Positions 1 to 5,898 of a DNA stretch of 5,898 nucleotides are shown here, piece by piece. The stretch's first letter is position 1; each line of letters opens with the position of its first letter. The translations under genes and the position numbers were made by a program. The DNA is taken from IMG/VR virus record IMGVR_UViG_2713896773_000011. One strand, 5' to 3'. The notes beneath the pieces are model-generated. The model had not been told where the DNA came from. It made no database searches and saw nothing but the letters and a program-made list of their open reading frames with translations. Source of the DNA: a virus. Lineage: Duplodnaviria > Heunggongvirae > Uroviricota > Caudoviricetes.

Positions 1-4
1 AACC

Positions 5-556
5 GTGGGTAAGCATCACTGGAAAGTAGAAAAACAGCCTGAGTGGTACGTGAAAGCTGTCAGAAAAACTATCGCAGCGTTGCCGGGGGGTTACGCTGAA
101 GCTGCTGACTGGCTGGATGTAACAGAGAACGCATTATTTAACCGCCTTCGTGCCGATGGCGATCAGATTTTCCCGCTGGGATGGGCAATGATTTTGCAAC
201 GTGCTGGTGGAACTCACTTCATTGCTGACGCTGTGGCGCAGTCTGCAAATGGCGTCTTTGTGTCTCTTCCTGATGTCGAGGATGTGGACAACGCCGATAT
301 CAACCAACGCCTGCTGGAGGTCATTGAACAGATCGGCAGTTATTCAAAACAGATTCGTTCAGCAATTGAAGACGGTGTAGTGGAACCGCATGAGAAGACA
401 GCAATTAACGACGAGCTGTACCTCTCAATTTCGAAGCTGCAGGAGCATGCAGCACTGGTCTACAAAATTTTTTGCATTTCAGAAAGTAATGACGCCCGCG
501 AGTGTGCAGCTCCGGGCGCCGTGGCGTGTCGTGACTGTGGAGAAACTAACGCATGA
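5..556 (+). CDS. Phage early regulatory protein, CII-like / YmfL-like (tentative); 5' end may lie upstream of the window
   Basis: 183-codon ORF whose frame is open to the window edge; the first start shown is GTG at 5. Stop TGA 554-556 overlaps ATG 553 of the next gene (ATGA coupling). Family assignment is by recalled resemblance to prophage CII-type regulators and is not verified. Confidence 0.55.
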
Positions 557-891
557 ATAGTTTAACAACACACTACCGTCGCTCGCAACTGATTGCGCTT
601 CCTGTACCGGGTGGAAAAGCGAAGGTGGAGTATTGCTATGCAGTTAATGTACCAGGTGACAGGGAAATTGTAACCCACAGCTTTGCTGAGTGGGCTGTGG
701 GTGATTTCAACCGGCAGAAGGAGACAGTCCTTTGCGACAAGTTAACCGCTGGTTCAAAGATCACTACGGAGTGCCCGTCAGAGTCATTCGTTGGGAGCCG
801 GAAACACAACGGGTTATCTACCTCCGCGAAGGCTATGAGCATGAATGCTTCAGTCCGCTCGAACAGTTTCGTCGTAAATTCAGGGAAATAG
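553..891 (+). CDS. Small prophage protein of unknown function (112 aa), possibly YmfM-like
   Basis: ATG 553 overlaps the upstream stop. The ORF ends at TAG 889-891, directly followed by GAGG (891-894) and ATG 901 of the replication gene. Length and position match e14 ymfM by recall only. The C-terminal half is Ser-rich and an alternative frame is also open (see findings). Confidence 0.5.
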
Positions 892-900
892 AGGTCGGTC

Positions 901-1842
901 ATGAGCACTAAATTAACCGGCTATGTATGGGATGGTTGCGCAGCGTCAGGCATGAAATTATCCAGCGTGGCAATTATGGCACGCCTGGCTGATTTCAGTA
1001 ATGACGAAGGTGTGTGCTGGCCATCAATTGAAACCATTGCCCGCCAGATTGGCGCGGGGATGAGTACCGTCAGAACGGCTATCGCACGGCTGGAAGCAGA
1101 AGGCTGGTTAACGCGTAAGGCGCGTCGCCAGGGTAACCGCAATGCGTCGAATGTTTATCAGCTTAACGTTGCGAAGCTTCAGGCTGCGGCTTTTTCTCAA
1201 CTGTCAGATTCTGACCCGTCAAAATCTGACGCATCAAAATCTGACCCGTCAAAATTTGATGCGTCGAAATCTGGCAAAAAAGCGGGTTTTCACCCGTCAG
1301 AATCTGGCGGGGATCCGTCAGTAAAATCAAAACATGATCCGTCAGATAAAAAAACTTCTCGTCCGGACGCTTCGCAACCGGACACGCAGAAGGCTGAACA
1401 GGATTTTTTAACTCGCCATCCTGATGCGGTTGTATTCAGCCCTAAAAAGCGCCAGTGGGGGACGCAGGATGATTTGACCTGCGCACAGTGGCTCTGGAAA
1501 AAAATCATCGCCCTGTACGAGCATGCCGCCGAATGTGACGGCGAGGTGGTTCGTCCCAAAGAACCGAACTGGACAGCCTGGGCAAACGAAATTCGCCTGA
1601 TGTGTGTGCAGGATGGTCGTACTCATAAACAAATCTGCGAGATGTACAGCCGCGTCAGCCGCGATCCGTTCTGGTGCCGTAACGTGCTCAGCCCGTCGAA
1701 GCTGCGGGAAAAATGGGATGAGCTTTCCCTGCGCTTATCGCCGTCCGTCAGCACGTACACCGAAAAACGCGAAGACCCGTACTTCAAAGCCAGTTACGAC
1801 AACGTGGACTACAGCCAGATCCCGGCAGGATTCAGGGGGTGA
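901..1842 (+). CDS. Phage replication initiation protein (N-terminal winged-HTH DNA-binding domain, repeat-encoded linker, C-terminal DnaT/primosome-like domain)
   Basis: 313-aa ORF with GAGG 6 nt upstream of ATG 901. The N-terminus (SSVAIMARLADFSNDEGVCWPSIETIARQIGAGMSTVRTAIARLEAEGWL) is typical of HTH replication initiators. The central linker is encoded by tandem 15-bp repeats. The C-terminal region resembles phage replication/primosomal proteins. Confidence 0.85.
   Translation: MSTKLTGYVWDGCAASGMKLSSVAIMARLADFSNDEGVCWPSIETIARQIGAGMSTVRTAIARLEAEGWLTRKARRQGNRNASNVYQLNVAKLQAAAFSQLSDSDPSKSDASKSDPSKFDASKSGKKAGFHPSESGGDPSVKSKHDPSDKKTSRPDASQPDTQKAEQDFLTRHPDAVVFSPKKRQWGTQDDLTCAQWLWKKIIALYEHAAECDGEVVRPKEPNWTAWANEIRLMCVQDGRTHKQICEMYSRVSRDPFWCRNVLSPSKLREKWDELSLRLSPSVSTYTEKREDPYFKASYDNVDYSQIPAGFRG
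1201..1353. repeat. Iteron-like array of 15-bp direct repeats (consensus about CCGTCAAAATCTGAC) inside the replication gene; putative origin of replication
   Basis: Five contiguous in-phase 15-bp units at 1201-1215, 1216-1230, 1231-1245, 1246-1260 and 1261-1275, then degenerate copies starting at 1294, 1315 and 1339, followed by an A7 tract at 1347-1353. They encode DPSKS/DASKS pentapeptide repeats. The arrangement is analogous to lambda ori lying inside gene O. Confidence 0.6.
1834..1839 (+). promoter_or_regulatory. Shine-Dalgarno (AGGGGG) for the PerC-like gene
   Basis: AGGGGG ends 5 nt before ATG 1845. Confidence 0.5.
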
Positions 1843-1844
1843 TC

Positions 1845-2333
1845 ATGAGTCTGTTAAATGACGTTCAGAAATTCATTGAAGCCCATCCGGGGTGTACTTC
1901 CGGAGACATTGCGGATGCTTTTACAGGTTACTCACGGCAGCGCGTTCTGCAGTCAGCAAGCAAGTTACGTCAGAGTGGGCGTGTGGCTCACCGTTGTGAA
2001 GGGGATGCACGCAGACATTTCCCGCGCCAGACAAAGATATCGCCGGAGGCGGAACGGCAACCAGTTCGTGAAACCAGACCTGTGCGCAATTTCTATGTCG
2101 GCACTAACGACCCGCGGGTGATTTTGTGCCTGGCCCGCCAGGCGGAAGAACTGGAGTCCAGGGGCTTATTTCGTCGTGCTGCAACCGTGTGGATGGCGGC
2201 ATTCCGTGAAAGCCACTCCCAGCCAGAACGAAACAATTTTCTGGCACGTCGTGAGCGGTGCTTACGGAAAAGCAGCAAGCGCGCTGCATCGGGTGAAGAG
2301 TGGTATCTGTCAGGGAATTACGTGGGGGCTTAA
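1845..2333 (+). CDS. PerC-family-like transcriptional regulator with an N-terminal winged-helix-like region
   Basis: ORF with ATG 1845 preceded by AGGGGG; the six-frame track starts at GTG 1839. The C-terminal segment LESRGLFRRAATVWMAAF matches the recalled PerC/Pch hallmark (LE..GL.RRAA..W). The stop TAA 2331-2333 overlaps ATG 2333 of the next gene. Confidence 0.55.
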   Translation: MSLLNDVQKFIEAHPGCTSGDIADAFTGYSRQRVLQSASKLRQSGRVAHRCEGDARRHFPRQTKISPEAERQPVRETRPVRNFYVGTNDPRVILCLARQAEELESRGLFRRAATVWMAAFRESHSQPERNNFLARRERCLRKSSKRAASGEEWYLSGNYVGA

Positions 2334-2986
2334 TGAGTAATAAATATTGCCGGGCGCTGGTGGAACTGCGGAACAAACCAGCCCATGAACTGAAGGAAGT
2401 GGGCGATCAGTGGCGCACGCCGGACAACATTTTCTGGGGAATTAACACCCTGTTTGGCCCGTTTGTTCTGGATCTGTTCACTGATGGTGATAACGCTAAA
2501 TGTGCCGCTTATTACACTGCGGAAGACAACGCGCTGGCGCATGACTGGTCAGAACGTCTTGCGGAGCTTAAAGGTGCTGCCTTTGGTAATCCCCCATACA
2601 GCCGCGCCAGTCAGCATGAGGGGCAATACATCACCGGCATGCGTTACATCATGAAACATGCCAGTGCCATGCGTGATAAAGGCGGGCGCTATGTTTTCCT
2701 GATCAAAGCTGCCACCAGCGAAGTGTGGTGGCCGGAAGATGCAGACCATATTGCTTTTATTCGCGGGCGTATTGGTTTTGAACTGCCAGCCTGGTTTATC
2801 CCGAAGGACGAGAAGCAGGTGCCGACAGGAGCTTTCTTCGCTGGTGCTATTGCTGTTTTCGACAAGACCTGGAAGGGACCGGCAATCAGCTACATCGGGC
2901 GCGATGAACTTGAGGCATGTGGTGAGGCGTTTCTGGCGCAGGTTCGCCAGCAGGCGGAAAAACTGGTCAGGGAGATGGCGGCATGA
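2333..2986 (+). CDS. Phage orphan DNA N6-adenine methyltransferase (Dam family)
   Basis: The FGNPPYS motif (catalytic NPPY of N6-adenine methyltransferases) is present along with conserved phage-Dam-like blocks (WRTPDNIFWGINTLFGPFVLDLFTDGDN; RYVFLIKAATSEVWWPED). ATG 2333 overlaps the upstream stop in a TAATG arrangement. The track ORF begins earlier at GTG 2300, but ATG 2333 is the more likely start. Confidence 0.88.
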   Translation: MSNKYCRALVELRNKPAHELKEVGDQWRTPDNIFWGINTLFGPFVLDLFTDGDNAKCAAYYTAEDNALAHDWSERLAELKGAAFGNPPYSRASQHEGQYITGMRYIMKHASAMRDKGGRYVFLIKAATSEVWWPEDADHIAFIRGRIGFELPAWFIPKDEKQVPTGAFFAGAIAVFDKTWKGPAISYIGRDELEACGEAFLAQVRQQAEKLVREMAA

Positions 2987-3093
2987 CGACGTTAACTCAA
3001 TGCCAGCAGCAGGTGCTGGATATGCTGATTTCTTATCAGAAAGAGCGTGGCTTTCCGCCAACCAATCAGGAGGTGGCAACCATGCTGGGATAA
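2983..3093 (+). CDS. 36-aa mini-ORF resembling the N-terminal part of the LexA DNA-binding domain (helices 1-2 only)
   Basis: MTTLTQCQQQVLDMLISYQKERGFPPTNQEVATMLG aligns by eye with the LexA N-terminus ([34 protein letters not shown]) and stops before the recognition helix. ATG 2983 overlaps the Dam stop (ATGA). Confidence 0.4.
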   Translation: MTTLTQCQQQVLDMLISYQKERGFPPTNQEVATMLG

Positions 3094-3098
3094 CCAGC

Positions 3099-3422
3099 AT
3101 GCAAAACAGCAGATCGCACTGGGGTCACAGAGAACCCAGGAAGATATCAAAATGGCTGTTGCGGATGATGATTGTGCTTCACGTGCTGTGCCTGCTGCCG
3201 CTGCTGACCGGTTGCGGAAGTACGCGGACAGTTTACGTGAGCGTTCCGGTGGCACCACTGCCACCCAGCCTGACTTCTGATACTCCTGTACCGTTTATAC
3301 CTAATCCGCTGACGTATGGTGCCAGTCTGGAGCTGAATGTGAGTCTGTTGTCTGCGCTGGCTAACTGCAATCGGGATAAAGCTGATATTCGTAAAATAGA
3401 TGCAGAGAGAACTAACCATTAA
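3099..3422 (+). CDS. Lipoprotein (signal peptide with lipobox LLTG|C; Pro-rich mature region with a second Cys); function unknown, o-spanin-like or exclusion-type
   Basis: Frame open from 2739, but the plausible start is ATG 3099 (alternative ATG 3165). It has a positively charged n-region, a hydrophobic stretch (MMIVLHVLCLLPLLTGC), Gly at +2, a proline-rich segment (VPVAPLPPSLTSDTPVPFIPNP) and a downstream Cys. Confidence 0.6.
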   Translation: MQNSRSHWGHREPRKISKWLLRMMIVLHVLCLLPLLTGCGSTRTVYVSVPVAPLPPSLTSDTPVPFIPNPLTYGASLELNVSLLSALANCNRDKADIRKIDAERTNH

Positions 3423-3443
3423 GCAATAAAATTGTCAAATTAA

Positions 3444-4070
3444 TCAGTTGTCAAATGAATATACGTTAAAGGTATATGTCGACATAATTTCACCAAGTAC
3501 CTCAATACATACACTTTTTTTATGAAAATTACTGGGAAATGAACTTAGCTCCTCAAGACATTGCACATAAGTGCTGATATCACTTGCATCACGTTCAAGG
3601 AATTTCACTTGACCAAAAGAAGGAGTTTTAATCTTGGTTCTTTGCTGGATTATATGGATAAAGTGTGTAGTTGGTGAAACTATTACTCTTGAAATATCGG
3701 AAATGATGTCTTCTTGAACTTGCCGATAAAGTAAATCCTTTGGGTAATGGTGTTTAATCTCGATGGTTGCAACATTGCCATTATGTTCAGACGTTAATAT
3801 CGACTGGTTATAAAGTGATATGTCAACAGCGCCGATACCGAGTTTTGGATGCTCACTTAAAGCAGTTAGTGTGCTGATTTGATTGAGTATAACAACTAAC
3901 TCATCACGTATTTGTGTTTCATGTTTGCGATTGTAGAAGTAGCCATTCAGTTCATTTAACTTTTTATGCATCCTATCGTGACTAATTGCTTCGATCAGTA
4001 AATCCTGAATCATACTTTTCTCTAGGTAATCCGAACGGTTGTAAGTGACAGTATTGTGCTGGCATGTCAT
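3444..4070 (-). CDS. Hypothetical protein (208 aa) with a possible PD-(D/E)xK nuclease-like signature
   Basis: Long ORF in AT-rich DNA, second gene of a minus-strand pair. Candidate motif residues are D56/E57 (RDELVV), D83 (GIGAVDISL) and E104-I-K106 (ATIEIKHH). No good SD precedes ATG 4070; an internal ATG (Met20, about 4013) follows a purine-rich stretch. Confidence 0.6.
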   Translation of the reverse strand: MTCQHNTVTYNRSDYLEKSMIQDLLIEAISHDRMHKKLNELNGYFYNRKHETQIRDELVVILNQISTLTALSEHPKLGIGAVDISLYNQSILTSEHNGNVATIEIKHHYPKDLLYRQVQEDIISDISRVIVSPTTHFIHIIQQRTKIKTPSFGQVKFLERDASDISTYVQCLEELSSFPSNFHKKSVCIEVLGEIMSTYTFNVYSFDN

Positions 4071-4113
4071 TAATATGTAAAGGTATTGTGAATGCCAGAA
4101 AGATAACGAAGTA

Positions 4114-4449
4114 TCATCGATAGAAAAACTTTACAGCCCACTCGTAAACAGCTTTGTAAATCGGTTCATGGTAAATACTATCGATACTATTCAGATGTGC
4201 GATCATCGCCTCCACAGTTGTAGTGGTTGTTTCTAATATTTCGATTATTGCAGGGCGGTCATCATCTTCATCGAAGTATTCGAACAGCAGTACAGGTTTA
4301 CCATGCAATTCAGCATCTGAGACTCTAAGGTTACAACTACCGCTCAACTCAAAGTGAATTTTGTAATTACCTTCTACAGAATGGCCTACGGGGAAAAAGT
4401 ATAGGGTGTCATCTTTGTTCAAAAGCCATTCCCATTCATAACTATTCAT
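4114..4449 (-). CDS. Hypothetical small acidic protein (111 aa from ATG 4449; 117 aa if ATG 4467)
   Basis: First gene of the minus-strand pair. A strong SD (AGGAG, plus-strand coordinates 4457-4461) sits 7 nt upstream of ATG 4449. It contains an acidic run (FEYFDEDDDRP) and a Thr5 tract. I recognise no family. Confidence 0.6.
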   Translation of the reverse strand: MNSYEWEWLLNKDDTLYFFPVGHSVEGNYKIHFELSGSCNLRVSDAELHGKPVLLFEYFDEDDDRPAIIEILETTTTTVEAMIAHLNSIDSIYHEPIYKAVYEWAVKFFYR

Positions 4450-4456
4450 TTGTGAA

Positions 4457-4461
4457 CTCCT
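4457..4461 (-). promoter_or_regulatory. Shine-Dalgarno (AGGAG) for the small minus-strand gene
   Basis: Minus-strand sequence reads ATGAACAGGAGTTCACAAATG; AGGAG is 7 nt upstream of the second ATG. Confidence 0.6.
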
Positions 4462-4536
4462 GTTCATTGAGTTTCAACAACTATCAACTACATCCAGCGA
4501 AGCATAAAAGATCGTTTATGGCAAAACCGGAATGGA

Positions 4537-4974
4537 GTGCGATTCGATTCTGAGAAGGGTGCCACGTACCGACACTGGATGGGAACGGGGACTGTCGGTG
4601 TGATGATTGCCGGCAGTGACCTGATTAATCCCATTCCGGAAGAATCAACGGAAACGGCGGCAAGACAACATATCGGGCCACTGGCCCCGGTGGCAGGCTC
4701 TGATTTGTATGTATTCAGGCCGGTGGCGCATAAAGTGGATTTTCATATCCGTGTGACGCCGGACACACCGGAAATACGGGCTGCCATCACCGCCGAGTTG
4801 CGTTCGTTCCTGCTGCGTGATGGTTATCCGCAGGGAGAACTGAAGGTGTCACGTATCAGTGAAGCGATTTCCGGTGCGAACGGGGAATACAGCCATCAGT
4901 TGCTTGCACCGGCGGACAATATCTCCATTGCAAAAAATGAACTGGCGGTACTGGGGACGATTTCATGGACGTGA
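4537..4974 (+). pseudogene. Baseplate assembly protein J-like (P2 gpJ / Mu gp47 family), C-terminal fragment only
   Basis: About 145 codons ending ...AVLGTISWT, against roughly 300 aa expected for J-family proteins. The frame is open back to 4471 with no ATG and no SD, starting at the edge of the low-GC segment. It is followed by an I-like gene and a tail fiber gene in the canonical J-I-H order. Similar to the e14 jayE remnant by recall. Confidence 0.65.
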
Positions 4975-5549
4975 CAAACGATGATTACATCCGTCTGTTG
5001 TCGGCACTGTTGCCGCCCGGTCCGGCGTGGTCAGCCAGAGATCCGGCGATTGCCGGTGCGGCACCGTCATTAACCCGCGTTCATCAGCGTGCGGATGCCC
5101 TGATGCGGGAGCTGGATCCGCGCACCACTACTGAACTGATAAACCGCTGGGAGCGTCTGTGCGGTCTGCCGGATGAATGTATTCCCGCAGGGACACAGAC
5201 CCTTCGCCAGCGTCAGCAACGACTGGATGCGAAGGTTAACCTGGCGGGCGGCATCAATGAGGATTTTTACCTTGCACAGCTTGCTGCCCTGGGCAGACCA
5301 GACGCTACCATCACGCGATACGACAAAAGCACGTTCACCTGCTCATCTGCCTGTACTGACGCGGTGAATGCGCCGGAATGGCGGTATTACTGGCAGGTCA
5401 ACATGCCAGTCGCCACCAACACCACCTGGATGACATGTGGCGATCCCTGTGATTCCGCGCTGCGCTTCTGGGGGGACACCGTTGTCGAGTGTGTGCTTAA
5501 CAAACTCTGCCCGTCGCATACCTATGTGATTTTTAAATATCCGGAGTAA
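4965..5549 (+). CDS. Phage tail/baseplate protein I-like (YmfQ / DUF2313, Mu gp48-like)
   Basis: 194-aa ORF whose ATG 4965 overlaps the upstream gene end (ATGGACGTGA). The N-terminal LLPPGPAW motif and the position between the J-like gene and the tail fiber gene support the call. Confidence 0.8.
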
Positions 5550-5552
5550 TCC

Positions 5553-5898
5553 ATGCATCGTATAGACACGAAAACCGCGCAGAAGGATAAGTTCGGCGCG
5601 GGTAAGAACGGTTTTACCCGTGGTAACCCCCAGACTGGCACGCCTGCCACCGATCTGGATGATGACTACTTTGACATGTTGCAGGAGGAGCTTTGCAGCG
5701 TGGTGGAGGCATCCGGTGCCAGCCTGGAGAAGGGGCGGCACGATCAGTTGCTTACCGCACTTCGCGCGCTGCTGTTAAGCCGCAAGAATCCGTTTGGCGA
5801 TATCAAATCGGATGGCACGGTGAAAACGGCTCTCGAAAACCTTGGTTTGGGAGAAGCAGCTAAAAGGAATGTAGGTACAGGGGCGAATCAGATACCTG
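5553..5898 (+). CDS. Phage tail fiber protein, N-terminal part (3' end beyond window)
   Basis: ATG 5553 lies 3 nt after the upstream stop, with GGAG at 5541-5544. The N-terminus ([47 protein letters not shown]) resembles the conserved tail-fiber N-terminal domain. The ORF runs off the window. Confidence 0.75.

Follow-up and report, generated by a model that had tools for sequence, protein, structure and literature searches.

Does the small acidic gene that lies beside a nuclease-like gene in this phage DNA serve as the partner of that gene, or do the two merely share a location? The stretch of DNA analyzed here, referred to as the window, is 5,898 nt long and comes from a tailed virus record in IMG/VR (IMGVR_UViG_2713896773_000011). 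The initial annotation, which was made from the letters of the window and its open reading frames, took the order of the two genes (a small acidic protein and then a larger putative enzyme) to resemble an antitoxin-toxin or immunity/regulator-effector pair. We examined the small gene, its neighbor, the occurrence of each family with and without the other, and the place that both occupy in related prophages.

The small ORF encodes an acidic protein of 111 aa

The minus-strand ORF at 4114..4467 is 117 aa long when counted from its first ATG. The features within it are as follows.

4114..4449, minus strand: coding sequence of the small acidic protein from its preferred start, 111 aa (WP_001089763.1; PHROG 14397), based on the starts of homologs and on purifying selection
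4450..4467, minus strand: six-codon extension with the first ATG (4467-4465), probably an untranslated leader; the extension is not conserved
4457..4461, minus strand: AGGAG Shine-Dalgarno (SD) element, 7 nt before ATG 4449, with equivalents in homologous loci
4252..4284, minus strand: acidic segment FEYFDEDDDRP, a predicted loop between strands 3 and 4 (low-confidence model; D-E-D invariance)

The start codon had been flagged as ambiguous, with a preference for the second ATG, at 4449, and comparison with homologs backs that preference. In an intact E. coli prophage, RefSeq annotates the gene as 111 aa (WP_001089763.1), and the PHROG 14397 model spans residues 7 to 117 of the long form, which corresponds to the shorter form. 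The Met that matches position 4449 is the first residue in nearly all full-length homologs of the small protein, and two homologous loci (L009 and L012) carry an in-frame stop 1 to 3 codons upstream of the conserved ATG. Purine-rich SD-like elements (AGGAA, GGGAG, TGAGG, and AGGAG) are found 7 to 8 nt before the conserved ATG in the window and in five homologous loci. In the window, the AGGAG sequence lies exactly where it had been described, 7 nt before ATG 4449 (4461-4457) and within the reading frame that opens at ATG 4467. The starts of homologs, the RefSeq and PHROG extents, the placement of the SD element, and the unconserved six-codon extension all favor translation from 4449.

The 111-aa protein has a pI of 4.56, a net charge of about -12, and an Asp-plus-Glu content of 18%. 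The Asp/Glu run FEYFDEDDDRP that had drawn attention to the protein is indeed encoded at 4284..4252. When the small protein was shuffled with its composition preserved, a run of five acidic residues such as this one arose about 1% of the time (p = 0.010), and residues D60-E61-D62 (111-aa numbering) are invariant in homologs down to 37% identity (37 to 47%; alignment A5). The structure model of the protein has a pLDDT of 53 and could be assigned no fold; it places the acidic loop between E51-59 and E67-73. A TTTTT tract had been pointed out along with the acidic run. Such tracts are present (4398-4394 and 4128-4124) but are not notable, as they consist simply of Phe-Phe codons and are matched in shuffled sequences (shuffle mean, 0.73; p = 0.19).

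The neighboring gene encodes a putative nuclease

Downstream of the small gene on the same strand are a short spacer and a larger gene.

4014..4113, minus strand: spacer of 100 nt between the small and large genes, with a sigma-70-like site (TTTACA, 17 nt, CACAAT) at 4081..4053 (promoter scan, 9 of 12)
3444..4013, minus strand: restriction-endonuclease-like (PD-(D/E)xK) protein, 189 aa (WP_000613842.1; PHROG 12494)

The large gene starts at 4013 (MIQDLL...), and the 189-aa RefSeq protein and PHROG 12494 both agree with this shorter form. ATG 4070 was considered as an alternative start and rejected, as the conserved start is that at 4013. The large protein has a restriction-endonuclease-like alpha/beta core fold, and residues D64, E85, and K87 (D...ExK) are invariant in 15 sequences. 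In the predicted structure, D64 is located at the beginning of strand 65-68 and E85 and K87 inside strand 80-89, which are the second and third core strands. Because this is the canonical PD-(D/E)xK arrangement, the label "putative nuclease" that had been given to the downstream gene appears reasonable, judging from the predicted fold and the invariant D...ExK residues. A search of the BFVD viral fold library with the large protein yielded weak matches only, none with an E value of 0.001 or better. R.SwaI, with its type II restriction endonuclease fold, serves as a comparison for this neighboring gene only; in contrast to R.SwaI, the protein encoded here is only 189 aa long and has no sequence family match, and no methyltransferase gene is adjacent within the cassette.

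A large homolog of 44% identity was also observed at 4001-4588 of locus L087, which is part of a nonphage chromosome and contains recJ, tusA, and genes for a GNAT acetyltransferase and a uracil-DNA glycosylase. This chromosomal neighborhood suggests that the nuclease-like family may have a housekeeping or domesticated form.

No terminator-like site was predicted between the small and large genes, so their cotranscription is possible. The promoter scan detected one weak sigma-70-like site upstream of the large gene, in the spacer, and found no sigma-70 consensus promoter upstream of the small gene. The length of the spacer (100 nt) and the promoter-like site within it suggest that the two genes are not translationally coupled.

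The small gene and the nuclease-like gene are not conserved as a pair

Loci of both families were gathered from assemblies, IMG/VR, and species genomes, and each locus was searched with both proteins by tblastn. The small and large genes were adjacent only where both were at least 94% identical to those of the window, namely, in 22 viral contigs and in 73 complete E. coli genomes. Where the small homolog was 39 to 74% identical, the large gene was found in 0 of 16 loci (L002, L003, L009-15, L028, L084, L086, L092, and L094-96); among these were prophages of the lambdoid and P22-like kinds, the remnant of a Pectobacterium prophage, a small contig that resembles a Rep3 plasmid, and the edge of a prophage. 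Where the large homolog was 44 to 71% identical, the small gene was likewise found in 0 of 34 loci (L004-8, L055-63, L065-67, L069-80, and L087-91), with solo large genes in Enterobacter, Citrobacter, Yersinia, and Morganella as well as in the chromosomal recJ/tusA context (L087). Some of the solo large genes leave no room for a partner. One is bordered directly by HNH and Rz (L089), and others lie 36 to 41 bp from the start of the terminase gene TerS (L057, L059, and L067).

Loss variants were found for both genes within the E. coli lineage of the cassette. In L050, L051, and E. coli GF60, the small gene is gone except for its last 26 nt, and the large gene is intact, with all 189 aa and the D...ExK residues kept. 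In its place is a 151-aa gene of unrelated sequence, on the opposite strand (L050, 3369-3824, minus strand; GF60, NZ_CP172185.1, 4045748-4047108). The converse loss was also seen: in L017 (4551-5750), and also in L018 and L081-L083, an IS3-family element interrupts the large gene after its codon 38, and the small gene is intact.

Two further observations concern these loci. The 151-aa replacement protein matches no family and is probably membrane associated. One protein in the collection, P0014, matches parts of both proteins and was considered as a natural fusion; it proved to be a frameshifted read-through from a metagenome and was set aside.

Taken together, the solo loci and the loss variants with an intact nuclease-like gene leave an obligate toxin-antitoxin or nuclease-immunity pairing unsupported. 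The pair proposed in the initial annotation is thus not supported by comparison, as the partner was present in none of the 16 and none of the 34 loci and the large gene stays intact where the small gene has been lost. On the strength of these sequence comparisons, the view that the small gene has no dedicated role as partner to the nuclease-like gene appears well supported. Type II toxin-antitoxin systems and nuclease-immunity modules (colicin DNase-Im and CdiA-CT-CdiI) likewise have a small acidic protein encoded beside a same-strand nuclease-fold protein. In contrast with such pairs, here co-occurrence is not conserved, the genes are separated by a 100-nt spacer, the small protein has no antitoxin or immunity domain, and the nuclease gene survives alone.

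A narrower form of the partnership would be a lineage-specific pair, in which the acidic protein was recruited within the E. coli cassette to inhibit, regulate, or confer immunity to its PD-(D/E)xK neighbor, with both families solo elsewhere in the manner of orphan immunity genes. Such recruitment would agree with the arrangement of the genes, which are adjacent and collinear on the same strand, 100 nt apart, and coinherited at 94% identity or more in both the 73 complete E. coli genomes and the 22 viral contigs, with no terminator predicted between them; it would also agree with the pairing of an acidic protein with a nuclease fold. We nevertheless consider it unlikely. L050, L051, the complete genome of E. 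coli GF60, and 34 of 34 diverged loci all have an intact nuclease-like gene but lack the small gene, and the promoter-like site in the 100-nt spacer and the lack of translational coupling do not point to a joint unit. Moreover, the large protein, with a pI of 6.0, is not basic, and the small protein has no match among antitoxin or immunity families.

Both genes are cargo of a variable slot between lysis and terminase genes

If the small gene is not a dedicated partner of its neighbor, its presence in the window can be sought in the place that it occupies. Two features of the window bear on this.

3440..4575, no strand assigned: low-GC two-gene cargo cassette, 34 to 40% GC versus 49 to 61% in flanking windows
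4518..4553, plus strand: fossil of the TerS 5' end, translated as MAKPEWSAIRF and then a stop; it aligns with real TerS starts (MAKPDW...)

The GC content of 34 to 40% over 3300-4500, compared with 49 to 61% in the flanks, sets the base composition of this region apart from that of the surrounding phage genes. In intact SfV/e14-like E. coli prophages, the cassette is located between the lysis module (holin, endolysin, Rz, and LysC) and the HNH endonuclease/terminase genes, and in the intact E. coli prophage its strand is opposite to that of the late operon. Where the small gene is solo, a divergently transcribed TerS gene starts 67 to 68 bp away in five or more phage backgrounds, and solo large genes occupy the same place between the lysis genes and TerS/HNH. 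The cargo of this slot varies among otherwise syntenic prophages, and the contents seen were the small gene, the large gene, a 75-aa gene, the 151-aa gene, and LmuA/LmuB. The last of these belong to a complete Lamassu system that stands beside a large homolog in the slot in L073 (710-3610) and L076; LmuB is 579 aa and LmuA is 369 aa with a Cap4 nuclease domain. The slot corresponds to a moron region as defined in the literature, in which an accessory gene is present or absent among syntenic phages and lies between functional modules (PMC2629481), and it resembles a defense hotspot.

A gene of 72 to 77 aa precedes the small or large homolog beside TerS in several loci (L003, 5663-5890; L004-L008 and L080, about 4683-4910). 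It matches no family and seems to be a third kind of cargo that can be exchanged in the slot.

The sequences upstream of the two families point to how cargo may be exchanged. Both are preceded by the TerS start, ATGGCAAAACCGGACTGG (MAKPDW), in reverse complement, together with its ribosome-binding site (RBS), and the match is weak for the large gene of the window. In the window, 68 nt separate the TerS fossil from the small gene downstream, and the fossil is not followed by a terminase gene either there or in the intact SfV-like prophage. The fossil at 4518-4553 shows that the small module originated in a phage where it adjoined TerS. A second TerS fossil is found in L004, directly upstream of the large gene and behind the 75-aa gene, and the 3' part of the spacer in the window has a weak, degenerate likeness to the TerS-start region that precedes solo large homologs.

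A TATAAT sequence upstream of solo large genes was considered as a conserved cargo promoter and rejected. It falls, on the opposite strand, in the spacer between the terminase RBS and ATG, and its conservation may therefore owe nothing to a cargo promoter. We describe it as promoter-like only.

In most lineages the small gene is alone in the slot, and the 189-aa gene is a second, separate cargo that is also usually alone. The cassette of the window would then consist of two cargo modules that were stacked, with recombination at the conserved TerS 5' end as the most likely route, and the stacked cassette would later have moved into an SfV-like prophage. In such a scheme, the 5' end of the terminase gene would act as a recombination anchor, with each gene a separate cargo module of the slot.

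The window as a whole (1-5898) is a mosaic from a degraded e14/SfV-like prophage, with junctions near 3092 and 4564-4575. The left part (1-3092, the replication/Dam region) is joined to the 3' part of Rz, which is followed by LysC, and the cassette is joined to the 3' end of a baseplate-J gene, which is followed by a YmfQ-like gene. Homology to the E. coli prophages ends at 4571-4575, and homology to the 3' end of the baseplate-J gene begins at 4564; the overlap of about 8 to 12 nt at this right junction suggests a microhomology-mediated deletion. The exact arrangement of the window was found in 0 of 5,426 complete E. coli genomes. Two ORFs, one of 48 aa (4488-4634, minus strand) and one of 145 aa (4537-4974, plus strand), straddle the cassette/baseplate junction and are most likely fusion artifacts; the 145-aa frame is C-terminal baseplate J sequence in which a GTG is spuriously taken as the start. 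Elsewhere in the window, the 313-aa ORF at 901-1842 encodes a helix-turn-helix replication-like protein with an imperfect Ser/Asp/Lys-rich peptide repeat, SDSDPSKSDASKSDPSKFDASKS, at about 1200-1320 (plus strand). An Rfam search of the whole window gave no match to an RNA family.

The small protein belongs to a very small family

Comparison of small-gene homologs gave 0.16 to 0.27 nonsynonymous differences per site against saturated silent differences of 0.77 to 1.0, and dN/dS was 0.13 in the one unsaturated pair. This purifying selection indicates that the small ORF is a genuine gene. The initial annotation had named, as a possible refutation, that the ORF might be a fragment of a larger unrelated gene. 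Full-length homologs are 105 to 112 aa, apart from one 135-aa protein that was called from an upstream start, and the small protein is therefore not a fragment.

An indexed search placed the small family in 15 clusters. An exhaustive profile search of 1.84 billion representative proteins returned 12 matches, four of them full-length clusters at 50% identity, and found no distant annotated relatives. Among 185,579 species-representative genomes searched with alignment A3 as the query, the family was present in three (Enterobacter soli, Escherichia sp. ESNIH1, and Hafnia psychrotolerans). A tblastn search of 50,697 GenBank phage records with both proteins found nothing, and a plasmid search with the small protein gave one match, in a 19-kb E. 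coli record. Neither protein had a significant match in Pfam, PADLOC, NCBIfam, or PDB-sequence profile searches, and neither matched a PADLOC 2.0 defense model at E values up to 1. In PHROGs, the only matches were to two families of unknown function, 14397 for the small protein and 12494 for the large one. Family searches with the small protein matched no antitoxin or immunity family and no DNA-binding domain. The protein is labeled hypothetical in every source, and a literature search found no paper on either gene. These results are consistent with a very small orphan family that is limited to Enterobacterales.

The most diverged small homologs were observed in two further settings. One is at 3048-3365 of L092, a 6.6-kb Rep3/NikA plasmid-like contig. 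The others (L094-L096) are at a prophage edge, near a TolA-like fragment and an orphan colicin/pyocin immunity gene (PF01320).

A role in phage conflict is possible

Since the small gene is antisense to the late transcript, it is probably expressed from the resident prophage; with no sigma-70 consensus upstream of the gene, expression in the lysogen is read from orientation only. What the protein does in biochemical terms is a guess. It probably acts alone, as a cytoplasmic binding protein, by way of its invariant acidic D-E-D loop, a putative binding site. Because related prophages have a complete Lamassu system in this slot, the most plausible role would be in phage-phage or phage-host conflict, either exclusion/defense or counterdefense. 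We tentatively suggest that the small protein could be a single-gene, prophage-expressed conflict factor that works through the D-E-D loop, and that the slot could be a recombination-anchored hotspot shuffled through the TerS 5' end among lambdoid prophages of Enterobacterales; this full account is possible but is not one that we would hold firmly.

Counterdefense by DNA mimicry is one specific form that such a role might take. The acidic protein would imitate DNA, as Ocr and ArdA do, and block a DNA-binding defense or phage protein. A net charge of about -12, a pI of 4.56, and a conserved acidic loop in a small cytoplasmic protein would suit a mimic, and Ocr and ArdA are themselves small and acidic. 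In contrast with these proteins, the small protein has a lower charge density (the acidic fraction of Ocr or ArdA is well above its 18%) and a different genomic position. It has no homology or fold match to Ocr or ArdA, nor does it resemble any known mimic in sequence or fold. Further, the gene is not placed among early genes but runs antisense to the late operon, in a temperate phage, and its persistence in prophage remnants (the window and L002) fits a benefit to the host better. We regard mimicry as quite improbable.

That the small ORF is nonfunctional or was miscalled in AT-rich foreign DNA, as its lack of a known domain match and its low-confidence structure model might suggest, is exceedingly improbable, as selection on it is strongly purifying with silent sites saturated, its length, start, and SD element are kept across homologs of 37 to 100% identity, and its frame is intact in degraded prophages (the window and L002).

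Discussion

The evidence points to the small gene as an independently evolving prophage accessory gene, or moron, in a variable slot of lambdoid, P22-like, and SfV/e14-like prophages. We consider this explanation probable as a whole, and within it the conclusions that the gene is not a partner of the nuclease-like gene and that it is a moron appear well supported.

This reading places the gene among familiar kinds of phage cargo. Lambdoid morons such as lambda bor are, like the small gene, inserts of foreign composition between the lysis and packaging modules that are present or absent among phages and run against the late operon; lambda bor is located downstream of Rz on the opposite strand. 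Bor itself is unrelated in sequence and is a lipoprotein, whereas the protein described here is cytoplasmic and acidic. Temperate phages also have variable defense hotspots, such as those of P2 and P4, in which conserved phage genes likewise bracket interchangeable cargo. The slot described here differs from the P2/P4 hotspots in phage group and in position (lysis to TerS/HNH), and the small protein matches no PADLOC model.

By itself, the small gene is ordinary for a hypothetical prophage gene, an uncharacterized member of a familiar class, prophage accessory cargo. The appealing reading of a small acidic gene followed by a nuclease gene as an antitoxin-toxin or immunity-effector pair is corrected by comparative genomics. 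Because cargo is apparently exchanged via the TerS 5' end and related prophages carry Lamassu in the same place, the slot between the lysis genes and TerS/HNH is a sensible place to seek further defense or counterdefense genes, among which both of the families described here may be included.
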